Position numbers and translations under genes: made by a program
Part shown: piece after piece, positions 12,043 through 64,000 of the stretch
How the letters are laid out: every line of letters starts with the position of its first letter
How positions within the stretch are numbered: the first letter of the stretch is position 1
The notes under the pieces: model-generated
The model's database searches: none
Seen by the model: only the letters and a program-made list of their open reading frames with translations
What the model was told of the DNA's origin: nothing
Assembly: GCF_013315695.1 (NCBI RefSeq)
Contig: NZ_CP054353.1
Strand: one strand, 5' to 3'
DNA from: Escherichia coli
GTDB taxonomy: Bacteria; Pseudomonadota; Gammaproteobacteria; Enterobacterales; Enterobacteriaceae
Length of the DNA: 64,000 nucleotides

Positions 12043-12197
12043 TACAAGGGAACTTTTTAAGATTATTGCGGAATGGCGAAATAAGCACCTAACATCAAGC
12101 AATAATAATTCAAGGTTAAAATCAATAACTTATTCTTAAGTATTTGACAGCACTGAATGTCAAAACAAAACCTTCACTCGCAACTAGAATAACTCCC

Positions 12198-12290
12198 GCT
12201 ATCATCATTAACTTTATTTATTACCGTCATTCATTTCTGAATGTCTGTTTACCCCTATTTCAACCGGATGCCTCGCATCCGGTTTTTTTT
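12198..12290 (+). ncRNA. micF: MicF antisense sRNA (represses ompF translation)
   Basis: Sequence GCTATCATCATTAACTTTATTTATTACCGTCATTCATTTCTGAATGTCTG... ending in hairpin plus T8, matching micF as I recall it, divergent from ompC. Confidence 0.85.
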
Positions 12291-15944: not shown

Positions 15945-16030
15945 CCTGTAGGCCAGATAAGACGCGTTAGTGTCTTATCTGGCATTTGCACTGAATGCCA
16001 GATGCGGCGTAAACGCCTTATCCGTCCTAC
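15945..16030. repeat. REP-like palindromic units between convergent rcsB and rcsC
   Basis: GATGCGGCGTAAACGCCTTATCCG-type units read in sequence. Confidence 0.6.
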
Positions 16031-27924: not shown

Positions 27925-29574
27925 TTAGTCCATTAATAATTGTCGGGTCAGCGTTTCGATATAGTTCTCATCAAGCCCGGTGGGATAACCATCAAAGGCC
28001 AGGTGCAGATACTCATGGGTTAAATCCAGCCGATCCTGAAGCGTAAAGAAGTTACGAATAAACAGCCGTTTCTGCTGCCGATCGGTATAGGGGAAACCTG
28101 AGACTAAACGACAGACCGCAAACACGTCTGGTTCGTTGTAGCCCGTCTCGCCTTGCAATATACGCCGCCACTGCGGCATTTTTTTCGCCAGCCAGGCTTT
28201 CGCTTTGGGTAATAACTGACAGGTTGAGCGTGGCGCTCCCCAGCGGCTAAGGCTGTTGTCGGGATAAGCAAACGCGAGTATCTGGTCGTAACGCTCTCCC
28301 TGCCCCGCCTGGGCCGTGGCTTGCCGCCAGGAAAGCGTCCCTTCGGTAGCGCGACTGCCGTGATAATGAACCGGATCGCCCGCATAGATAAGATCCTGCG
28401 TCCAGGCGGTCATCGTTCGCGCCCCCGTGGTAGCTGGCGAAGCCGAAACACGCTGTGTGGCGCTGCTGTCAGGGATGGTCAGGCAATCGCCTTCCCGATT
28501 GGCGTTTTGCTGTAAAAAAGTGCGTATCGCCACGGTCATGGCTTTCGCTGCCTCAGGGGGCGTACTTTTCGCCTCGCGATCCAGAACTCTGGCAACATAC
28601 TCTTCACGATCGAGATGCGACTGCAATTTCAGTTTGCCCTTTTCGCTCAGTAAGGTCGTCTCACCGTGGCTGACAAACGTAATGTGGTTACCATTGGCGA
28701 ACGTCACACGATAGCGCCCATTAAGTACGCCGGGTTTTACTGCCGTCGTACTCTTTTCCGCTGCGATTTTCTTCAGCGGATAGCGGGCAAACAGCTCCAC
28801 CTCTACACATTGCCCACTGGCAACCTGCGTCGGCACTGGCAAAACCCGATTAAGCACCGTCGCATAACGGGTCAGTACCGTTTTGCTGGTGCCACTGCCA
28901 GTCACCCACAGCGGTGTACCATCGGTTAACCAGCCAGCAAAACCACCCTGACGGATTTCCTGTTTATCATCGGCAAACCAGCTCCAGGTTTTCACCCGTA
29001 CCCGACTACCGAGCATAGATGCGACACCGATTTTCGCCTCGTCCAGCACCACATCCAGTAAGACTTCCTGAGCTTTGTTTTGCGCGGGTAACGTCGCTAA
29101 TGAATCAAGCAGTGATTTAACCGTTACCGAGGTTTCTGGCTTCAGCGTAGTAAGAGACGCTAACCACGCAGGTGCCTGACGCTGTTGCCAGTATTGCCCC
29201 CACACATCTGCGCCAATATGCAACCGCTGCGGCGCAAAATAGAGCCCACAGGAACGTACCAGCGCGATATCGCGCGTTATGCTCTCCCCTGCCTGACAAC
29301 AATAAACCTCTTCCGGGGAGTTTCCGCGACACTGGTAGGGCTGCTCCGGTTGATGGGTATCCTCCAGCCAGGCGTAAACATACAGTTTCCATAAACTCCC
29401 TAACGGCGTGGTGAGCGTGTCAGGTAATGCTGAGACTTTGGTCACGCCTGATGACGACAGCTGATACAGTTGATCGTGCTGCGCGCCCCGCAGCGCCAGT
29501 TGTAACGGCGTCTCCTCCGCAAGCGTTGGCAGAGTAACCAACGCTAATAGCCAGACGATTCTGCGCCAGTTCAC
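27925..29574 (-). CDS. yfaQ: YfaQ, secreted DUF2300-type protein
   Basis: 549-aa ORF with signal peptide; synteny. Confidence 0.75.
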   Translation of the reverse strand: MNWRRIVWLLALVTLPTLAEETPLQLALRGAQHDQLYQLSSSGVTKVSALPDTLTTPLGSLWKLYVYAWLEDTHQPEQPYQCRGNSPEEVYCCQAGESITRDIALVRSCGLYFAPQRLHIGADVWGQYWQQRQAPAWLASLTTLKPETSVTVKSLLDSLATLPAQNKAQEVLLDVVLDEAKIGVASMLGSRVRVKTWSWFADDKQEIRQGGFAGWLTDGTPLWVTGSGTSKTVLTRYATVLNRVLPVPTQVASGQCVEVELFARYPLKKIAAEKSTTAVKPGVLNGRYRVTFANGNHITFVSHGETTLLSEKGKLKLQSHLDREEYVARVLDREAKSTPPEAAKAMTVAIRTFLQQNANREGDCLTIPDSSATQRVSASPATTGARTMTAWTQDLIYAGDPVHYHGSRATEGTLSWRQATAQAGQGERYDQILAFAYPDNSLSRWGAPRSTCQLLPKAKAWLAKKMPQWRRILQGETGYNEPDVFAVCRLVSGFPYTDRQQKRLFIRNFFTLQDRLDLTHEYLHLAFDGYPTGLDENYIETLTRQLLMD

Positions 29575-36463
<6,889 letters not shown>

Positions 36464-40750: not shown

Positions 40751-40762
40751 AAATAACCTCAT

Positions 40763-41998
40763 TTATTTAGCATGTGAAATAACATTGTCTTTCTGGGCGT
40801 TATCTTTTTTATTATCAATTTTCATTGATAACAAAATAGCTACGGCGATAAAGCAAAGAATCGCCTCAACAATAAATATCCCCGTGGCTCCATAATGTGT
40901 AGAAACATAGCCAAGTGATTTATTGATCAGAAAACCACCCAAACTTGAACAAGAGTTAATAAACGCAATACTGATTGCCAGGCCTGATGGTGAAAGTAAA
41001 GCTGAGGGTAAAGCCCAGTACGGACCGTAATAACTGAGAATGCCTACACCGTATAATGTTAATCCCATCATGCGCAGCGTCATCGAAGGTACAAGTGCGA
41101 TCATTAAAAAACCGCAACCTGCAACCAACATCGGTAGTGCGGCATGCCATTTCCTTTCATTCTTTTTATCGGAATGCCATCCCCATAATGGCATACTGAA
41201 CATCGCGAAAATAAACGGAATACTCATAATCAAACCGACATCGGTATCTGTGAAATCCGATGAAAATCCTTTAACCAACCCCGGTAACCAGTAATTTGCC
41301 GCCAACGCCGCTGCCTGAATAAACATATAAGCAAATGAGAGTTGTAGTAATACTGGATTTTTAATGATTGACAGAAAAGATGCATTTGTATTTTTATTTA
41401 ATGCTGCGGCTTTTTCGTTATCAGAATTAAGTTTATCGACCAATGCGGTGACTTGCGATGGTGTAAGCCAGCGGGCTTTTTCCGGACGATCTGGCAGTAA
41501 ATAAAAGGTCAGCGCCCCCAATAACACCGTAGGAATGCCTTCAATAGCAAAAAGCCAGCGCCATCCTTCATAGTTACCGGTATTCATATGTTCAATAATC
41601 CAACCAGACATTGGTGCCGCCAGCACAGATGCAACTGCGATTGATAACATAAAAAAGCTATTCACTTTTCCACGTTCGCGCGCCGGGAACCAACATGCCA
41701 GGTAGTAAACCATGCCAGGGAAAAACCCCGCTTCAAATATTCCCAAAAAGACCCGAGCGAGCAATATATGCTGGGTGTCTTTGGCAAAGAAAATTAACGT
41801 TGTTACTGTTCCCCAACCAACAATAATGGCGCTAATCCATTTTCTTGCACCTAACTTTTGCAATCCAATACTGCTCGGAGTTTGAAAAATTAAATAGGAC
41901 ACAAAAAATATTGAAGATATATTAGCAAAATCCTCTGGAGTAATACCAAGGGATTCATTCATGCGTAAAGCGGCAAACCCAATATTAACACGATCCAT
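40763..41998 (-). CDS. MFS transporter, anion:cation symporter-like (sugar-acid uptake); 5' end apparently frameshifted, see findings
   Basis: 411-aa ORF with MFS signature (DRVNIGFAA...) ; the expected first about 31 codons are in a different frame (ATG at 42090). Confidence 0.75.
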   Translation of the reverse strand: MDRVNIGFAALRMNESLGITPEDFANISSIFFVSYLIFQTPSSIGLQKLGARKWISAIIVGWGTVTTLIFFAKDTQHILLARVFLGIFEAGFFPGMVYYLACWFPARERGKVNSFFMLSIAVASVLAAPMSGWIIEHMNTGNYEGWRWLFAIEGIPTVLLGALTFYLLPDRPEKARWLTPSQVTALVDKLNSDNEKAAALNKNTNASFLSIIKNPVLLQLSFAYMFIQAAALAANYWLPGLVKGFSSDFTDTDVGLIMSIPFIFAMFSMPLWGWHSDKKNERKWHAALPMLVAGCGFLMIALVPSMTLRMMGLTLYGVGILSYYGPYWALPSALLSPSGLAISIAFINSCSSLGGFLINKSLGYVSTHYGATGIFIVEAILCFIAVAILLSMKIDNKKDNAQKDNVISHAK

Positions 41999-42180
41999 AT
42001 AGTTAAAAAATACAGAATAAATGCTAACGGAATAATCTTCCTTTTCACAATAGAAATGGCATCATACAAATCTTTCTGAGGACTGCTCATTTTGTTTCAC
42101 CTTTTGTGCTTCAATGAATAAGAGTACTACCCGAAGTGGATATTACGTAAAAAATAATCCAGTTCAAAAGGTGATGTGTT

Positions 42181-42196
42181 ATATCTGATATATCAG
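42181..42196. promoter_or_regulatory. palindromic operator-like site ATATCTGATATATCAG (copy 1) in divergent MFS/GntR promoter region
   Basis: CTGATATATCAG is a perfect palindrome; near-identical copy 70 bp downstream. Confidence 0.5.
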
Positions 42197-42250
42197 CCTG
42201 ATCATTGATTGAAACACTAACCTACAACAATAAGATACATTATTTTTGTC

Positions 42251-42266
42251 ATATCTGATATATTAG
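42251..42266. promoter_or_regulatory. operator-like site ATATCTGATATATTAG (copy 2)
   Basis: 15/16 identical to copy 1; 62 bp upstream of the GntR gene start. Confidence 0.5.
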
Positions 42267-42327
42267 ACACCTTCATTTATAAAATGATTACATATAATGG
42301 GTCAGCAGCTTAATAAGGGGCAAAGGA

Positions 42328-43026
42328 ATGAGAGATAAAGCGAAACGTGACTTAAGTCACATATCAATTGAGATACCAAAATCCGTAACCCAGGTCATCA
42401 AAGAAAAAATCAGGGATATGATAATTCATGGCGATCTCAGTCTTGGGCAACCGATAAGTGAAAATGAACTTTCGAATATTCTGGCGGTAAGTAAAACACC
42501 TATTCGTGAAGCTTTTATTTTACTTAGTCACAATGAAAATCTGATCAATATCATTCCACGCAGCGGAACATTCGTTTTTTCCGTAACAGATAAAGATATT
42601 AATGACCTCATAAAAATGCGAGTAATTCTGGAGCAGGGTGCAATTAGTGAAACAATGGAAAAGAATGCAAACAATGTCATCATTGAACTAAATAGTATAC
42701 TATCAAAATCAGCAAAAATTAATGCCGAGCGCGATACTCAGGCTTATCTTAAACTGGATCATGATTTTCATTATGTGTTTGTTAAATACGCTGATAATAA
42801 ATACATCTCTCAGGCACACCAATTGATATCCGCACGTTTACTTGCTATCCGTTATCGACTGGATTTCACTACGGAATATATCACCAATTCAAATCGTGGC
42901 CATGCGACTATTTTAGATATGCTAAAAAATAATAACGTTGAAGGTGTTTGTAATTTTATTACTCATCACGTAAGTAGTGGATTTACCGAGCGCGCACGAA
43001 AAATTCTCTCGTTATCTACACAGTAA
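42328..43026 (+). CDS. GntR-family transcriptional regulator (N-terminal wHTH, C-terminal FCD-like domain)
   Basis: 232-aa ORF with GntR HTH signature (ISENELSNILAVSKTPIREAF); strongly A/T-ending codon usage. Confidence 0.8.
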   Translation: MRDKAKRDLSHISIEIPKSVTQVIKEKIRDMIIHGDLSLGQPISENELSNILAVSKTPIREAFILLSHNENLINIIPRSGTFVFSVTDKDINDLIKMRVILEQGAISETMEKNANNVIIELNSILSKSAKINAERDTQAYLKLDHDFHYVFVKYADNKYISQAHQLISARLLAIRYRLDFTTEYITNSNRGHATILDMLKNNNVEGVCNFITHHVSSGFTERARKILSLSTQ

Positions 43027-43965: not shown

Positions 43966-46900
43966 TTACCATTTCACTGTCATCGACAAAAACCCTGCCG
44001 TCTGGGCAAAATCATCACTCCCTTTCTGCCACGCCACGCTACCACGCAGCGAAACTCGCTGACTGATATTGCCCGTTATTCCCACTTTTATTTCACCCCG
44101 TTGCTTCGCCGCATCGTCACTGATAGTGCTGCCATCTTCTTCAATTCCCGTCGAATGGGGATCGTGATAATAATTCAGATCTAACGTTGGCGTGACACCA
44201 ACAGCAGTACGCCATTCGCTGTGTAAACCCAGCCGCGTTTGAATATCATCACCCTGCGATTGTGACACGCGCGCATGGTTAGCGGCGGTAAAATCATCCT
44301 GCTGCACGCCCTGATAAATCACCTGCGTCTGCGGTTCAATCACCACACCATGCCCCGGTAACCACTGATAACCGGCTTCCAGCGAGGCGATAATCCCCGA
44401 CGAGTGGTAATGATCCACGCCATCGTCTTGTTCGGAAACATCATTGTTAAACCACACATATTGCAGCCAGCTATCCAACCAGGCCCCCTGCTTCTGATTA
44501 CCGTGCTGATACCAGCTTGAGGTCAGCCCAACGGCATAACCGTGGTTCTGGTTATCGGCGCGAGTTCCGGTCATATTCGAGCGGCTGTCGCCCTGGTTAT
44601 CGCTGTAGCCACCAACAATCCCAAGCATCCACTCGCCATCATCACCCCAGTGCCCGCTAAACAGGTTGCCGCTAAGCTGCACCGTAGAAGTGTCTTCATG
44701 CTGAGCCAACTGCCCTACCGCCGTGTAATGATAACGCCCGCCGATAACGCGTAAATTCAGCGTCTGACCATCGCCACCAGCGTGATCGCGTCGCTCCATC
44801 ACAAATGCCTGATTTGCCGCCCGCAGGTTATTAAAATATCCACCAACTTTGGCATTCAACACCGGCTGGTAGGCAGGCGTAGGTTCCGGGTCGGGGGTTG
44901 GGTCGGGATCCGGCGTGGGATCAGGATCTGGAGTCGGGTCCGGATCGGGCGGCGGCGTCGGATTGACTTCTTGCGATCGCAGATACCAGTCGTTGTTATC
45001 TTCCACCAGCGTATAGTCATACGCCCCCATATTGACGTAGCCGCTGCCCGCCAGACTGAACTGCGCATTGTTTTGAAATTGCGTTGGATCGGCTGCGAAA
45101 TCAACCACTTTAATGCCTGTAGATGTCGGCTCACCAATACCCGTAATGGGATTAATTACCACGGTCGTGTTGCCAGCAGTATTACCGTTCAACACCAGTT
45201 GGTCGCTTGCCGAGTCATCGCCGTTTAATTCGCTGTCGAGAAACAACGTACCGCCACCGGTGTAATCACCGTTTACCGTGAGCGTGTCGCCAGCGACGCC
45301 ATTTTGCAGACTGACAGCACCGGAAGTATTAGTTAGATCACCATTGACCGTCACGTCTGAAAGATAAGTCAGGCTGTCAGTTTCAAGGTTGGTATTAAGC
45401 TCGCCTGTCAGCGTCACACCATCGGTGGCATTCACCAACGTACCGTCGCCGCTAAACAGCGAGGCATCCAGCGCCTGGTTCGTATCCTGCTGCGTCAATC
45501 GCAACACAGTACCATCGGTTATGTCGATATCGCCGCCAGAGGTGGCATCGATTGAACGAATATCCTGATTTTGCCCGGTTTCAAAAACACCGTCTTCCCC
45601 CACCCACAGTGAAGAAACATAAGGAATAATATTCTCCGCTTCACCTTTTAGCGTTCCGTCCTCCACACGTACCGCAGACGTCGCAGTGCCGCTGGCGGTC
45701 AACTCAAGCGTCCCGCCGCCACTTTTAGTCAACGTGCTTACGCTATCCAGTTGTTGCCCGGTACTATCCGCCATCAACCCGCCCCATTGCGTATCTACAC
45801 CATCCTCAACGTGTATTTCGCCATCAGCGCGCATTTCAATATTCCTGCCCTGACCTGTTGTAGCCGAGCGAATGTCAACATCAGTCGTCACATCCATTTC
45901 ACTGTGTTGTTGGGGATCTGTGAAGATCACTGAACGGTTGTAACTTGTGTCCCCCAATTGCGAATTATCGCTGACTTCAAGCGTACCGGAGGCGATTTGC
46001 GTATTACCGAGATAACCGTTGTTATTCGCCAGCGTTACGCGCTGATCCCCCGCATTAATGACGACATAAACGCCATTCTGGCTGGCATCACTGCCGCCAA
46101 TATGTAAATCATCGCCACTGCTGATATCAACGACATCATTACTACCAATCACTGTCCCCCCGCTGCCGCTGATTTGCAGACCGTCATTGTATGAGCTATC
46201 GCCATCCCAGGTGGTGAAATCAGAGAGATCCAATACTCCGCTATTTAGCACGATCGATTGCGGATCGCTCTGCATTGCCCGTAAATCGGCCTGATTCCCC
46301 GCTAGCGACAATACGGCGTTATCTTCCACCACAATATCGCCGGTTAATGCCATCGACTGCGCCCCTGTCAGGAGATAGCTGCCATCTTGCGCTACCGTCA
46401 ACTGTCCTTCACCCTGAATCGAGCCGGAAAAACCGCCCTGGTTTACTGTAACATTGCCGCCTGCGTCGATATTCAAAATGCCATTAGCAAAACCGGTTAA
46501 TGAGTGCACAAACGTTTGTTGTGTATTGCCAACATTCAGTTCTGCCTGATACTCAGAATGAACAGTGCTGCCGACCATCAAACCAAAGCAATCCTGCGGA
46601 TCGCTCTGACAGTGCGTGTCGCCGACATTCATTAACTCATCGCTGCGCCCCAACGTCACCTCGCCATTCTGGATACTCATCTCGCCGGTAAACGCATTAT
46701 TGTCGGCATTGAGGACTAACTCTCCCGCTCCCTCTTTCACGATGACTCCCGTTCCGGCAAGAGAATCAATCGCGCCATCGTTGCTGGTATTGCCTATTAC
46801 CAGCGTTTTATCGGCGGCAATATTAAATTCAGCCACACTATGACCGATATACATAAAGCCCCCCGCCGCTGCCGTCGCCGAATGGTCATATCCCGAGGCG

Positions 46901-47724
46901 CTGTTATTTTCATCAATCATCACACCATTGTTTTGGTCATAATTATCATCAACAGAAATATCAATAAGATACGGGGATGTGGTGCTGCTGGTATAAATTG
47001 CTCCGCCATAACCTTCTGCATAGTTATTGGTAAAGGAGGTATTATTAATTATCGTTTTTCCTGAAAGATGTGTGTTATCCGTACTATTATCCGTAACATC
47101 AATGGCACCGCCGTCCCCATCACTATAGCTGGTTGATGTATATGCCTGATTATTATCAAAAATGACATCACTTAAATAAATATCATTATTGATAGAATAA
47201 ATAGCGCCACCTTTACCATCATTGGCGATATTATTCGCAAATATTGCATTAGTGATATTTAAATCCATATCACCGGCATCGTTTGTTCCCGCAGAATAGA
47301 TTGCTCCGCCATAGCCTCCTGCAACGTTACTGTCGAAAATAACATTCGCAAGATTTATCGTTGAGTTTTCTTTAGCAAAGATAGCTCCGCCATTATTATA
47401 TTCGCCACTAATCGAGTTATTAGCAAACAGGGTCATCCCTGTTTCATTTTGTGGTGATATCGTAAATTCAGCACTTTGCTGCAAAAATACGGCGCCACCG
47501 CTGGCATTATTGGCCATACCCGAAAAAATCACCCATTGCCCATCGGCGATGCTCCAGTCCTGCGTAATGCCTGAAAGGCTTTGCCTGCTGGCCTGACAAC
47601 TCGCTTTGATATCATATCCCTGGCATGAATCCAAAACCTCCGCGACACTGTTAACAGAGAAAAGAGATGCAATCATTGACGGGAGTAAAGATAAATACTC
47701 CTTGCGTAGAAAAATAATCCGCAT
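43966..47724 (-). CDS. yfaL: AIDA-like autotransporter adhesin YfaL (EhaC) with passenger beta-helix, Pro/Thr/Asp-rich linker and C-terminal beta-barrel
   Basis: 1252-aa ORF; signal peptide; linker PTPPPDPDPTPDPDPTPDPDPTPDPEPTP; C-terminal barrel ending in aromatic residue (KW). Confidence 0.85.
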   Translation of the reverse strand: MRIIFLRKEYLSLLPSMIASLFSVNSVAEVLDSCQGYDIKASCQASRQSLSGITQDWSIADGQWVIFSGMANNASGGAVFLQQSAEFTISPQNETGMTLFANNSISGEYNNGGAIFAKENSTINLANVIFDSNVAGGYGGAIYSAGTNDAGDMDLNITNAIFANNIANDGKGGAIYSINNDIYLSDVIFDNNQAYTSTSYSDGDGGAIDVTDNSTDNTHLSGKTIINNTSFTNNYAEGYGGAIYTSSTTSPYLIDISVDDNYDQNNGVMIDENNSASGYDHSATAAAGGFMYIGHSVAEFNIAADKTLVIGNTSNDGAIDSLAGTGVIVKEGAGELVLNADNNAFTGEMSIQNGEVTLGRSDELMNVGDTHCQSDPQDCFGLMVGSTVHSEYQAELNVGNTQQTFVHSLTGFANGILNIDAGGNVTVNQGGFSGSIQGEGQLTVAQDGSYLLTGAQSMALTGDIVVEDNAVLSLAGNQADLRAMQSDPQSIVLNSGVLDLSDFTTWDGDSSYNDGLQISGSGGTVIGSNDVVDISSGDDLHIGGSDASQNGVYVVINAGDQRVTLANNNGYLGNTQIASGTLEVSDNSQLGDTSYNRSVIFTDPQQHSEMDVTTDVDIRSATTGQGRNIEMRADGEIHVEDGVDTQWGGLMADSTGQQLDSVSTLTKSGGGTLELTASGTATSAVRVEDGTLKGEAENIIPYVSSLWVGEDGVFETGQNQDIRSIDATSGGDIDITDGTVLRLTQQDTNQALDASLFSGDGTLVNATDGVTLTGELNTNLETDSLTYLSDVTVNGDLTNTSGAVSLQNGVAGDTLTVNGDYTGGGTLFLDSELNGDDSASDQLVLNGNTAGNTTVVINPITGIGEPTSTGIKVVDFAADPTQFQNNAQFSLAGSGYVNMGAYDYTLVEDNNDWYLRSQEVNPTPPPDPDPTPDPDPTPDPDPTPDPEPTPAYQPVLNAKVGGYFNNLRAANQAFVMERRDHAGGDGQTLNLRVIGGRYHYTAVGQLAQHEDTSTVQLSGNLFSGHWGDDGEWMLGIVGGYSDNQGDSRSNMTGTRADNQNHGYAVGLTSSWYQHGNQKQGAWLDSWLQYVWFNNDVSEQDDGVDHYHSSGIIASLEAGYQWLPGHGVVIEPQTQVIYQGVQQDDFTAANHARVSQSQGDDIQTRLGLHSEWRTAVGVTPTLDLNYYHDPHSTGIEEDGSTISDDAAKQRGEIKVGITGNISQRVSLRGSVAWQKGSDDFAQTAGFLSMTVKW

Positions 47725-62103: not shown

Positions 62104-62249
62104 CGTACACGATTCCGTGCCCAATGTATACGTTGCAACGCAGTGAAAATTCCTCTGAAAACGTCTCGCAAAGGCTGAAACTGGCAGATGTCAAAGGCCC
62201 GGGATAACCGTAATGTCGCGTCATCATAAATATCAGGTGACGGACAACC

Positions 62250-63209
62250 ATGACCGAATCAACAACCTCCTCCCCGCATGATGCGGTGTTTAAAACCTTT
62301 ATGTTCACACCCGAAACCGCACGGGATTTTCTGGAAATACATCTACCAGAGCCGCTGCGCAAGCTTTGCAACCTGCAAACTTTACGCCTGGAACCCACCA
62401 GCTTTATTGAAAAAAGTTTACGCGCTTACTACTCGGATGTTTTGTGGTCGGTGGAAACCAGCGACGGTGAAGGCTATATCTACTGCGTGATTGAACATCA
62501 AAGTTCCGCGGAAAAGAATATGGCCTTTCGGCTAATGCGCTATGCCACTGCCGCCATGCAACGTCATCTGGACAAAGGCTATGACAGAGTCCCGCTGGTG
62601 GTACCATTGCTGTTTTATCATGGCGAAACCTCGCCCTACCCGTACTCACTCAACTGGCTGGATGAGTTTGACGATCCGCAACTTGCCCGGCAGTTGTACA
62701 CCGAAGCTTTTCCGTTGGTGGATATCACCATCGTACCTGACGATGAGATCATGCAACATCGGCGTATAGCTCTGCTGGAACTGATTCAAAAGCATATTCG
62801 CGACCGCGATTTAATCGGTATGGTCGACAGGATCACCACGCTTTTGGTTAGAGGCTTCACTAATGACAGCCAGCTACAAACGCTGTTTAATTATCTGCTG
62901 CAATGCGGCGATACCTCCCGTTTCACCCGTTTTATTCAGGAGATTGCCGAACGTTCACCACTACAAAAGGAGAGATTAATGACTATTGCTGAACGGCTGA
63001 GGCAGGAAGGGCATCAAATTGGCTGGCAGGAGGGTAAGATTGAAGGTTGGCAGGAGGGGAAATTGGAGGGTTTGCAGAAAGGCAAAGTAGAAGGTATGCA
63101 TGAACAAGCCATTAAAATTGCCTTGCGCATGCTGGAACAGGGCTTTGAACGTGAGATTGTGCTGGCGACAACCCAACTCACTGATGCTGATATTCCGAAC
63201 TGTTATTAA
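62250..63209 (+). CDS. yfaD: Rpn-family (YhgA-like, transposase_31 / PD-(D/E)XK) recombination-promoting nuclease homolog
   Basis: 319-aa ORF; N-terminal nuclease-like domain and C-terminal repeat module ([25 protein letters not shown]); I recall yfaD being renamed rpnE. Confidence 0.8.
62979..63209 (+). CDS. candidate in-frame internal small protein (RpnS-like C-terminal domain of YfaD) with its own ribosome-binding site
   Basis: Strong SD AAGGAGAG 7 nt upstream of in-frame ATG 62979 ([19 protein letters not shown]...); the same SD and start sequence is duplicated at ypaA. Confidence 0.45.
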
Positions 63210-63221
63210 AAGGAGAGATTA

Positions 63222-63407
63222 ATGACTATTGCTGAACGGCTACGGCAGGAAGGACATCAAATTGGCTGGCAGGAGGGTAAATTAGAAGGCATGCATGAAC
63301 AAGCCATTAAAATTGCCTTGTGCATGCTGGAACAGGGCATTGAGCGTGACCAGGTGCTCGCGGCCACTCAGCTAAGCGAAGCCGATCTGGCAGCGAATAA
63401 CCACTAA
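63222..63407 (+). CDS. ypaA: YpaA, free-standing paralog of the Rpn C-terminal domain
   Basis: 61-aa ORF; first 33 nt including the SD are identical to the internal start region of yfaD. Confidence 0.7.
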   Translation: MTIAERLRQEGHQIGWQEGKLEGMHEQAIKIALCMLEQGIERDQVLAATQLSEADLAANNH

Positions 63408-63447
63408 TTAACACAGGCCCACAGCCGATCCCCATGGGCCTTTGATA

Positions 63448-64000
63448 TCAATAACTACCTTTTACGCGTGGCCCATTTTTGCCTGATTTAAACATCGCCA
63501 GTCGTTGATCCAGGGCATCGCTGTAGAGCATCGTGTCAACGCCAACAGCGACAAAGTTCGCTCCCCACGCCAGGCATTGCTGCGCCATATCAGGAGCCAC
63601 AGCCAGAAAACCAGCAGCTTTACCCGCAGCACGGATCCGCCGAATGCTGGTTTCAATAATTCGCTGCACTTCCGGGTGCCCGGCGTTATCCGGGTAGCCC
63701 AACGAGGCAGAAAGATCCGCAGGTCCAATAAACACGCCATCAATTCCTTCGACGCCGAGGATTTCGTCCAGGTTATCCAGTGCTGTTTTACTTTCCACCT
63801 GCACCAGCAGACAAAGCGAATCGTTGACGTGCGCCATGTAATTCTCAATGCGTCCCCAGCGAGCAGCCCGTGCCACACTGGCCCCAACACCACGCTCACC
63901 GTAGGGAGGATAGCGCGTGGCAGACACCACCTGACGTGCCTGATCGGCAGTATCGACCATTGGGATCAGTAGAGTTTGCGCGCCAATATCCAGGACTTGT
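63448..64000 (-). CDS. rhmA: 2-keto-3-deoxy-L-rhamnonate aldolase (HpcH/HpaI family), N-terminal part beyond window end
   Basis: Minus-strand frame open from 63448 to the window edge; the listed 170-aa ORF is only the C-terminal part (…[16 protein letters not shown]…). Confidence 0.8.

Follow-up and report, generated by a model that had tools for sequence, protein, structure and literature searches.

The rpnE (yfaD)–ypaA locus of Escherichia coli: a probable Rpn-type nuclease with a putative nested inhibitor and an expressed, probably non-cognate duplicate

The DNA analyzed here is a 64-kb stretch of an Escherichia coli chromosome (hereafter, the window), and the locus under study is the chromosomal rpnE (yfaD)–ypaA locus of this species, one of the Rpn "gene-within-a-gene" systems known from the literature. 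Its features, listed in Table 1, comprise a long gene that encodes RpnE_L, a small in-frame ORF (rpnE_S) nested in the 3' part of that gene, and a free-standing small gene, ypaA, located just downstream. The long gene is rpnE and not a new Rpn gene: its product scored 709.5 bits with the NCBIfam rpnE equivalog NF007418 (cutoff, 583) and 172.9 bits with TIGR01784, the model of Rpn/YhgA-like nucleases (cutoff, 52.1). At the DNA level, the 1.4-kb region is 100% identical to that of E. coli strain MS 21-1, in whose annotation the gene is named rpnE, and ~96% identical to that of K-12.

Table 1. Features of the rpnE–ypaA locus, in coordinates of the 64-kb window
Feature	Coordinates	Strand	Basis
rpnE (yfaD) CDS, full-length RpnE_L, 319 aa	62250..63209 (incl. 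stop)	+	ORF list; NCBIfam equivalog NF007418
N-terminal PD-(D/E)XK / Transposase_31 (PF04754) nuclease domain, aa 8–209	62271..62876	+	Pfam, E = 6.2e-88
Candidate internal promoter of a short rpnE_S(-ypaA) transcript: -35 ATGACA, 17-nt spacer, -10 TTTAAT	62863..62891	+	prediction only
Duplication 5' segment, copy 1 (holds the 33-mer)	62965..63055	+	direct repeat, 89% identity over 91 nt, 243-nt spacing
Shine-Dalgarno AAGGAG of the internal start	62967..62972	+	sequence; inside the exact 33-mer; 6-nt spacer to ATG
rpnE_S, nested small ORF from Met244, 76 aa	62979..63209	+	in frame with rpnE
RpnE tetrad (12-nt / 4-aa) repeat array, GWQEG + 5 units	63021..63095	+	TRF period 24, 3 copies; unit counts
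Duplication 5' segment, copy 2; begins inside the rpnE stop codon TAA (63207-63209)	63208..63298	+	
Shine-Dalgarno AAGGAG of ypaA	63210..63215	+	sequence; 6-nt spacer to ATG
ypaA (= rpnE_Ss), 61 aa, free-standing duplicate of the RpnE C-terminal module, 1 tetrad unit, "Y-type" tail	63222..63407	+	
GC-rich hairpin between convergent ypaA and yfaU, likely shared terminator	63415..63441	.	terminator-like site on - strand

The locus occupies a fixed place in the chromosome. A homologous locus was found in 5420 of 5426 complete E. coli genomes, flanked every time by glpC and yfaU, and all matches to its DNA in these genomes were chromosomal, with none on plasmids. The immediate neighbors in the window are glpABC and the rhamnonate genes, and the remainder of the 64 kb is core genome (nap, ompC/micF, rcs, ato, gyrA, nrdAB, glp), with no defense genes or defense-island context around rpnE–ypaA. 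Moreover, PADLOC-DB v2 contains no Rpn model, and its sole match was a weak one (E = 7.6e-5) between the C-terminal region and an unrelated candidate labeled "putative invertase". Judged by curated model and island context, rpnE–ypaA would not be classed as an anti-phage defense locus.

Reference annotations describe the two genes in other terms. PGAP names rpnE an "ISNCY family transposase" and ypaA "incomplete; missing N-terminus", and the MG1655 annotation gives rpnE as "inactive recombination-promoting nuclease-like protein" and ypaA as a pseudogene. An rpnE allele disrupted by IS2 is present in strain UTME-10. The labels of pseudogene for ypaA and of transposase or "inactive" protein for rpnE thus persist to date.

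RpnE_L would combine a PD-(D/E)XK nuclease domain with a helical C-terminal domain. The residues D11, D63, E82, Q84, R94 and D165 (PDDEI motif), taken from the study in which their mutation altered the activity of RpnA (Kingston 2017), are present in the RpnE of the window and in all nine E. coli alleles aligned, the numbering of RpnE being collinear with the RpnA model over positions 1–256. A sequence search of the PDB with full-length RpnE as query returned no real match. Among alleles, the N-terminal domain exhibited a pN/pS of ~0.07. Because the six residues tested in RpnA are all present and the N-terminal domain shows this low ratio, a live RpnE nuclease is plausible.

Previous work on the K-12 protein points the other way. 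In the study that defined RpnE as YfaD, K-12 RpnE gave negative results in all three assays, which measured recombination, SOS induction and toxicity to a recA-deficient strain, and was the one Rpn protein without activity (Kingston 2017). This negative result is weakened on two counts, since constructs of this type co-expressed RpnE_S, as has been pointed out for the family (Zhong et al. 2023, PMC10400941), and since the K-12 allele carries the substitutions L107Q and P155L. Leucine 107 and proline 155 are found in the window and in nine other non-K-12 alleles (six from E. coli, one metagenomic, one from a divergent E. coli-like genome and one from E. albertii), whereas K-12 has Q107 and L155. 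The sole RpnE allele ever assayed is that of K-12, with two derived substitutions.

The first-pass annotation of this DNA had placed an in-frame ATG within the long gene at 62979, preceded by a strong Shine-Dalgarno sequence, and had proposed that the C-terminal domain can be made from it as a separate protein. The analysis confirms the position and frame of this start. The ATG lies 729 nt from the start of rpnE ((62979 − 62250)/3 = 243) and corresponds to Met244 of the 319-aa ORF, and the same AAGGAG with a 6-nt spacer precedes both this ATG and that of ypaA. The strong Shine-Dalgarno sequence and the ATG at Met244 would lead to separate synthesis of the C-terminal domain as RpnE_S. The internal start of RpnA is likewise M244 and has been validated by mutation (Zhong et al. 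2023, PMC10400941). Furthermore, retapamulin ribosome profiling revealed an in-frame internal start peak for each of the five rpn genes, rpnA–E, and the product of the rpnE internal start was described as nearly identical to that of the independent gene ypaA (Meydan 2019, bioRxiv 10.1101/520783). For the K-12 ortholog, internal-start peaks are on record from Ribo-RET/Onc112, ribosome-profiling tracks have been published for rpnE–ypaA, SPA-tagged RpnE_S, RpnE_L and YpaA (RpnE_Ss) were seen by immunoblot, and K-12 dRNA-seq placed internal transcription start sites in all rpn genes (Zhong et al. 2023, PMC10400941). The Shine-Dalgarno/start segment of the window is identical to that of K-12.

The segment around the internal start is duplicated. 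The 33-mer AAAGGAGAGATTAATGACTATTGCTGAACGGCT, which comprises the Shine-Dalgarno sequence, the ATG and six codons, had been reported to occur twice, and it does: the 64-kb window holds exactly two copies (62966-62998 and 63209-63241), both on the + strand, and no match was found in 100 dinucleotide-preserving shuffles. The second copy had been placed at 63208..63240. For the 33-mer as given, these coordinates are shifted by one base, but 63208 is where the identity between the copies begins: it reaches one base further 5', giving a 34-mer from 62965 and 63208. The similarity extends well past this core, as 62965-63209 aligns end to end with 63208-63407 except for a 48-nt gap and a diverged 3' end. 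The gap corresponds to a 48-nt (16-aa) repeat block that is present in the rpnE copy and absent from ypaA. In the window, 5 of the 93 nt in the first 31 shared codons distinguish the two copies, compared with 15 of the 45 nt in the last 15 codons. The latter amount to ~7 amino-acid changes between RpnE_S and YpaA, and the first 20 residues of YpaA are those of RpnE_S. The diverged second copy that had been noted directly downstream is an intact ORF that aligns with RpnE_S along its length.

In keeping with what defines a free-standing RpnSs gene, ypaA is a separate ORF with its own Shine-Dalgarno sequence just downstream of its parent. Its ATG lies 12 nt past the rpnE stop, a gap shared by all two-copy loci of our first allele set. 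None of the 17 two-copy loci has lost the Shine-Dalgarno sequence, the ATG or the reading frame of ypaA, and the pN/pS of its non-repeat codons (0.19) equals that of the nested rpnE_S copy; both observations argue against a dead remnant. At the sequence level, YpaA matched the RpnA_S crystal sequence (PDB 7th0) with E = 4.7e-5, the gap in the alignment falling exactly at the repeats. The AlphaFold models were of low confidence (pLDDT of 68 for RpnE_S; a single helix for YpaA) and contained no bundle, and Foldseek with a low-confidence model again gave 7th0 as its top match, a weak one (E = 0.45, rmsd 14.9). Neither YpaA nor the C-terminus of RpnE matched Pfam DUF4351 (PF14261). The YpaA of the window carries C34 and E41, which occur in no other sampled allele.

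Regarding transcription, a strict promoter scan of the region yielded no sites, and the candidate in Table 1 was the sole 10/12 match upstream of the internal start in a relaxed scan. Between the internal start and ypaA, neither the strict nor the relaxed scan detected any promoter-like site. The duplicated segment starts only 14 nt upstream of the ATG, so that ypaA would not have inherited the internal promoter. Most likely, rpnE_S and ypaA are carried on one short transcript. The hairpin located downstream of ypaA has a fold energy of -12.1 kcal/mol (z = -2.1 on the + strand).

The two small proteins differ in a tetrad repeat array, whose units begin at residue 20 in RpnE_S and YpaA alike. 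In the window, RpnE has five units and YpaA one, that is, four fewer in YpaA (16 residues, ~24 A of helix). The hypervariable 4-aa repeats of the published system (Zhong et al. 2023) begin 8-20 residues past the initiating Met, and such repeats are found in RpnE_S and YpaA. Across 21 sampled loci, we counted 0-8 units in RpnE and 0-6 in YpaA, the lengths changing in 12-nt steps throughout. The 17 two-copy loci displayed nine RpnE/YpaA unit combinations (5/1, 0/1, 8/6, 8/4, 6/4, 5/2, 5/0, 3/1 and 1/4), and the two numbers were unequal in every one of them. We considered whether the lack of equal pairs is a sign of selection and rejected it, as shuffling of partners gives zero equal pairs 54% of the time. 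In a rank-spread sample of 60 genomes, ~57% carried a separate ypaA and ~43% were single-copy. The tails that follow the repeats differ as well: in two-copy loci the upstream copy is always E-type and the downstream copy always Y-type (..RD.VLAATQLSEADLAANNH), and a Y-type tail was found in four of the four single-copy E. coli loci sequenced.

Compared with K-12 rpnE (b2244)–ypaA (b4543), the locus of the window lies at the same glpC/yfaU site and shares the Shine-Dalgarno/start 34-mer, the Met244 start, the 12-nt gap and the E-type and Y-type tails. The repeat array sets the two alleles apart: RpnE_S has 76 aa with five units in the window and 56 aa with none in K-12, whereas the YpaA proteins of the two strains each have one unit. 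Published work on rpnE–ypaA already covers the nested start and its small protein as well as the downstream duplicate and how it evolved, and the locus holds no new biology in these respects. The first-pass annotation, which had offered the arrangement as its own inference, got the anatomy right, but the arrangement had already been described in 2019 and 2023. The locus can serve as a worked example of how a genuine gene-within-a-gene system is recoverable from raw sequence. We found no follow-up on RpnE or YpaA after 2023 in the literature searched.

Previous studies provide the functional frame for the family. For RpnA, RpnB, RpnC and the plasmid-borne RpnP2, the long protein (RpnL) is toxic or SOS-inducing and is blocked specifically by the cognate small protein (RpnS); RpnA_S forms complexes with RpnA_L and stops DNA cleavage; and the C-terminal domain common to both proteins has a long dimerizing helix that carries hypervariable 4-aa repeats (Zhong et al. 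2023, PMC10400941). The addition of one repeat to only one partner abolished neutralization in the RpnC system (Zhong et al. 2023, PMC10400941), and a commentary on that work states that a repeat mismatch prevents complex formation. RpnE shares with these four systems the PF04754 domain, the equivalent internal start, a small protein of identical N-terminus and the hypervariable tetrad in helix 1. It differs in its experimental record, as toxicity, neutralization, complex formation and, for RpnP2, phage defense have been demonstrated for them, whereas K-12 RpnE was negative in the earlier assays. Protection against phage has been demonstrated for RpnP2 only (Zhong et al. 2023, PMC10400941). 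Thus, the general statement that had accompanied the locus, that Rpn nucleases are toxic antiphage proteins restrained by nested small proteins, is well founded in its toxin/antitoxin part for RpnA, RpnB, RpnC and RpnP2, but its antiphage part applies to RpnP2 alone and K-12 RpnE showed no activity.

Two further kinds of gene resemble ypaA. In some E. coli strains, rpnC_Ss likewise is a free-standing RpnS module situated just 3' of its parent, rpnC. It belongs to a different paralog and locus, and in the published phylogeny both downstream copies cluster with their respective parent genes (Zhong et al. 2023, PMC10400941), so the duplications that gave rise to rpnC_Ss and ypaA are regarded as independent. 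Free-standing RpnS-like genes of the DUF4351 type also encode a small RpnS-type protein as a separate gene, yet they are distinguished from YpaA and the RpnE C-terminus by their PF14261 domain.

Taken together, we consider it probable, with good confidence, that RpnE_L and RpnE_S constitute an Rpn-type gene-within-a-gene nuclease–inhibitor pair and that YpaA is a duplicate that is expressed and maintained by selection, probably a non-cognate one. By homology with RpnA, RpnB, RpnC and RpnP2, RpnE_S would pair with the identical domain of RpnE_L via its long first helix and hold the nuclease off; toxicity of RpnE_L and its neutralization by RpnE_S are inferred from the same systems. The ypaA gene would have originated within E. 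coli as a tandem duplicate of the Shine-Dalgarno-to-stop segment, and the Shine-Dalgarno copy it thereby received would serve its translation. In the strain of the window, YpaA is probably not a cognate inhibitor of the neighboring RpnE_L, because it has four fewer repeats and a different last helix, and because specificity in the published system is governed by a one-repeat rule. Against this explanation as a whole we count the inactivity of K-12 RpnE, RpnP2 being the sole phage-defense case, the lack of a defense island, the lack of a PADLOC model, the low confidence of the structure models and the fact that the unequal repeat numbers cannot be told apart from chance.

The most direct competitor casts YpaA as a redundant antitoxin, cognate to the adjacent RpnE_L and additional to RpnE_S, with two sources of inhibitor buffering the toxin. 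The shared first 20 residues, the same Shine-Dalgarno sequence and start, the detection of YpaA protein in K-12 and purifying selection on ypaA are all compatible with such a role. We nevertheless regard it as unlikely in view of the one versus five repeats in the window, the unequal numbers throughout the two-copy loci, the loss of RpnC neutralization upon gain of a single repeat, the reported block of complex formation by mismatch, and the divergence over the last 15 shared codons. Accordingly, the description of the locus as a toxin with both a nested and a duplicated antitoxin-like partner agrees with the architecture published for K-12, but its "duplicated antitoxin" is doubtful. At the opposite extreme, ypaA might be a functionless pseudogene or recombination scar of the tandem duplication, as its labels in MG1655 and PGAP and its absence from ~43% of the sampled genomes would allow. 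Intact ORFs, Shine-Dalgarno sequences and start codons in all 17 two-copy loci, length changes that are in frame every time, a pN/pS matching that of the nested RpnE_S region and the tagged protein detected in K-12 make this reading very improbable.

A broader objection is that rpnE as a whole has decayed into an inactive Rpn paralog, so that there is no toxin to restrain and the small proteins are leftovers or otherwise employed. The three negative K-12 assays, the "inactive" product name in MG1655 and the IS2-disrupted allele of UTME-10 speak for decay; conservation of every residue tested in RpnA, the N-terminal pN/pS of 0.07, and persistence of the gene at this position in almost every E. 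coli genome and also in E. albertii speak against it, and the K-12 allele has the derived L107Q and P155L and was assayed with RpnE_S co-expressed. On balance, decay of the entire locus seems quite unlikely. It is extremely improbable that rpnE is the transposase of an ISNCY-type element, with the 33-mer as part of its mobility machinery. That notion draws on the PGAP product name, on the Pfam family name Transposase_31 and on a 14-nt imperfect inverted repeat (62187-62200 / 63436-63449) that flanks the module. We rejected this repeat as element ends and attribute it to chance: its right arm is a terminator stem, its left arm is not conserved (GGCCT in K-12-type alleles versus GGCCC), and by our own estimate ~0.16 inverted-repeat pairs of such kind are expected by chance per 1.4 kb. 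In addition, the marks of an insertion sequence (terminal inverted repeats, target-site duplication, variable location) are not those of rpnE–ypaA, which sits at a fixed chromosomal site and has no plasmid matches; the published analysis found no terminal repeats, no target duplications and no autonomous PD-(D/E)XK transposases (Zhong et al. 2023, PMC10400941); and the copies of the 33-mer are coding direct repeats.

With RpnE_L/RpnE_S as the nuclease–inhibitor pair and YpaA as the probably non-cognate duplicate, YpaA might act as a spare of the non-cognate kind, donate sequence to the C-terminal module by recombination, or serve as a decoy. A more specific and decidedly speculative proposal is that YpaA is not a spare antitoxin but a mismatched, expressed "alternative specificity cassette", for which the conserved segment from the Shine-Dalgarno sequence through the start to helix 1, comprising the 33-mer and its flanks, would be the recombination substrate. 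If this were true, the downstream module would replace or remodel the C-terminal domain of RpnE, producing single-copy Y-tailed and hybrid-tailed alleles, and under pressure from phages the toxin–antitoxin pair could change its repeat number together with its tail in a single step. In a variant of the proposal, free YpaA homodimers would act as a decoy or sensor and not as an inhibitor.

The origin of the duplication may be reconstructed with the help of two outgroups. In E. albertii, rpnE occupies the same site as a single copy whose array has three units and whose tail is Y-like; in a divergent E. coli-like genome, the only copy ends in a hybrid E/Y tail. These two loci were those recovered by a scan of species-representative genomes for the Shine-Dalgarno/start segment; they were used as outgroup and are too few for a phylogeny. 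The simplest history that fits the sequences has four steps, each of them inferred: an ancestral single-copy gene would have carried a Y-type tail; the Shine-Dalgarno-to-stop segment would have been duplicated in tandem within E. coli; the tail of the nuclease-attached copy would then have diverged or been replaced; and the 5' part would have continued to be homogenized, with repeated recombination between the copies. Since its origin, ypaA may have been reshaped by slippage of the 12-nt repeats and by inter-copy recombination. This history agrees with published phylogenetic work, according to which ypaA is a second RpnE_S copy derived from rpnE and can be lost via deletion or fusion with the N-terminal part of rpnE (Zhong et al. 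2023, PMC10400941). A scan of metagenomes for the junction between the rpnE stop and the ypaA start identified only one contig.

The annotation of ypaA, the 61-aa duplicate of the RpnE C-terminal module (63222-63407), conflicts with the evidence gathered for this gene. In MG1655 ypaA (b4543) is annotated as a pseudogene, and PGAP describes it as 'incomplete; missing N-terminus', beginning at the rpnE stop codon. These labels are contradicted by the ypaA ORF, Shine-Dalgarno sequence and ATG codon, all of them intact in 17/17 loci, by a pN/pS of 0.19, and by the detection of tagged YpaA as a protein in K-12 (PMC10400941). Among the sampled alleles, the window YpaA carries two private non-synonymous changes, Cys34 and Glu41, at positions where all the others, including the close relative S88, encode Arg and Asp.

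The report that RpnE is 'inactive' rests on the K-12 allele, the sole RpnE allele ever assayed. Allele comparison revealed that RpnE of K-12 MG1655 and C600 (locus L028:1-900) contains Q107 and L155, whereas L107 and P155 are encoded in the window, in six further alleles from E. coli, in one metagenomic allele, in a divergent genome resembling E. coli, and in E. albertii. The negative assay result may be peculiar to the K-12 protein. Regarding expression, a published table of constitutive promoter sites for minor sigma factors, obtained by genomic SELEX, lists in its heat-shock sigma section a site assigned to the glpC/yfaD/ypaA interval (PMC5493296). This site, at K-12 coordinate 2355640 (glpC > yfaD > ypaA), is located at a resolution too coarse to separate a promoter of rpnE from an internal promoter of the nested small ORF rpnE_S (PMC5493296).

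Variant rpnE alleles were observed in other genomes. The single-copy rpnE of 'E. coli' SCPM-O-B-8794 (locus L026:1403-2173, minus strand) encodes a 22-residue tail that mixes the upstream-copy and ypaA-type tails. This hybrid tail suggests that the rpnE and ypaA copies recombined, with a breakpoint within the last helix. The single-copy RpnE of E. coli O169:H41 2014EL-1345-2 (locus L022:211-1185) displays an internal duplication of a different kind, seen in a 19-residue segment; its unit of 8 aa (24 nt) takes in residues that precede the usual tetrad array, and slippage therefore extends beyond the 12-nt unit. In E. coli UTME-10 (locus L009:1651-3523), an IS2 insertion cuts rpnE short after about 211 codons, and this allele is a natural knockout of the C-terminal part of the nuclease and of the internal start.

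A 14-nt, 93%-complementary inverted repeat (62187-62200 / 63436-63449) flanks the entire rpnE-ypaA module. It was judged to be a chance occurrence, because its right arm is a terminator stem and its left arm is not kept in K-12-type alleles.

For other parts of the window, PGAP flags as pseudogenes in the 100%-matching strain MS 21-1 yfaQ (frameshift), yfaT (internal stop), the autotransporter gene yfaL (internal stop), and two genes with frameshifts, one for a GntR regulator and one for an MFS transporter; the rhamnonate transporter gene just outside the window is likewise flagged. Either disrupted genes are unusually dense here, or the flags stem from sequencing errors. Two Rfam matches above the gathering score, MicF and naRNA4, are both ordinary for this region.

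Window coordinates of the variant codons, PGAP-flagged genes and small RNAs
Feature	Position	Strand	Remark
RpnE codon 107	62568-62570		L in window, Q in K-12
RpnE codon 155	62712-62714		P in window, L in K-12
YpaA codon 34	63321-63323		Cys in window, Arg in the other sampled alleles
YpaA codon 41	63342-63344		Glu in window, Asp in the other sampled alleles
Genes flagged as pseudogenes by PGAP	about 28081-29573, 34112-34735, 40762-43026, 43966-47724		Converted from MS 21-1 record
MicF sRNA	12197-12290	+	Adjoins ompC
naRNA4	15951-16027	-	REP-derived nucleoid-associated RNA
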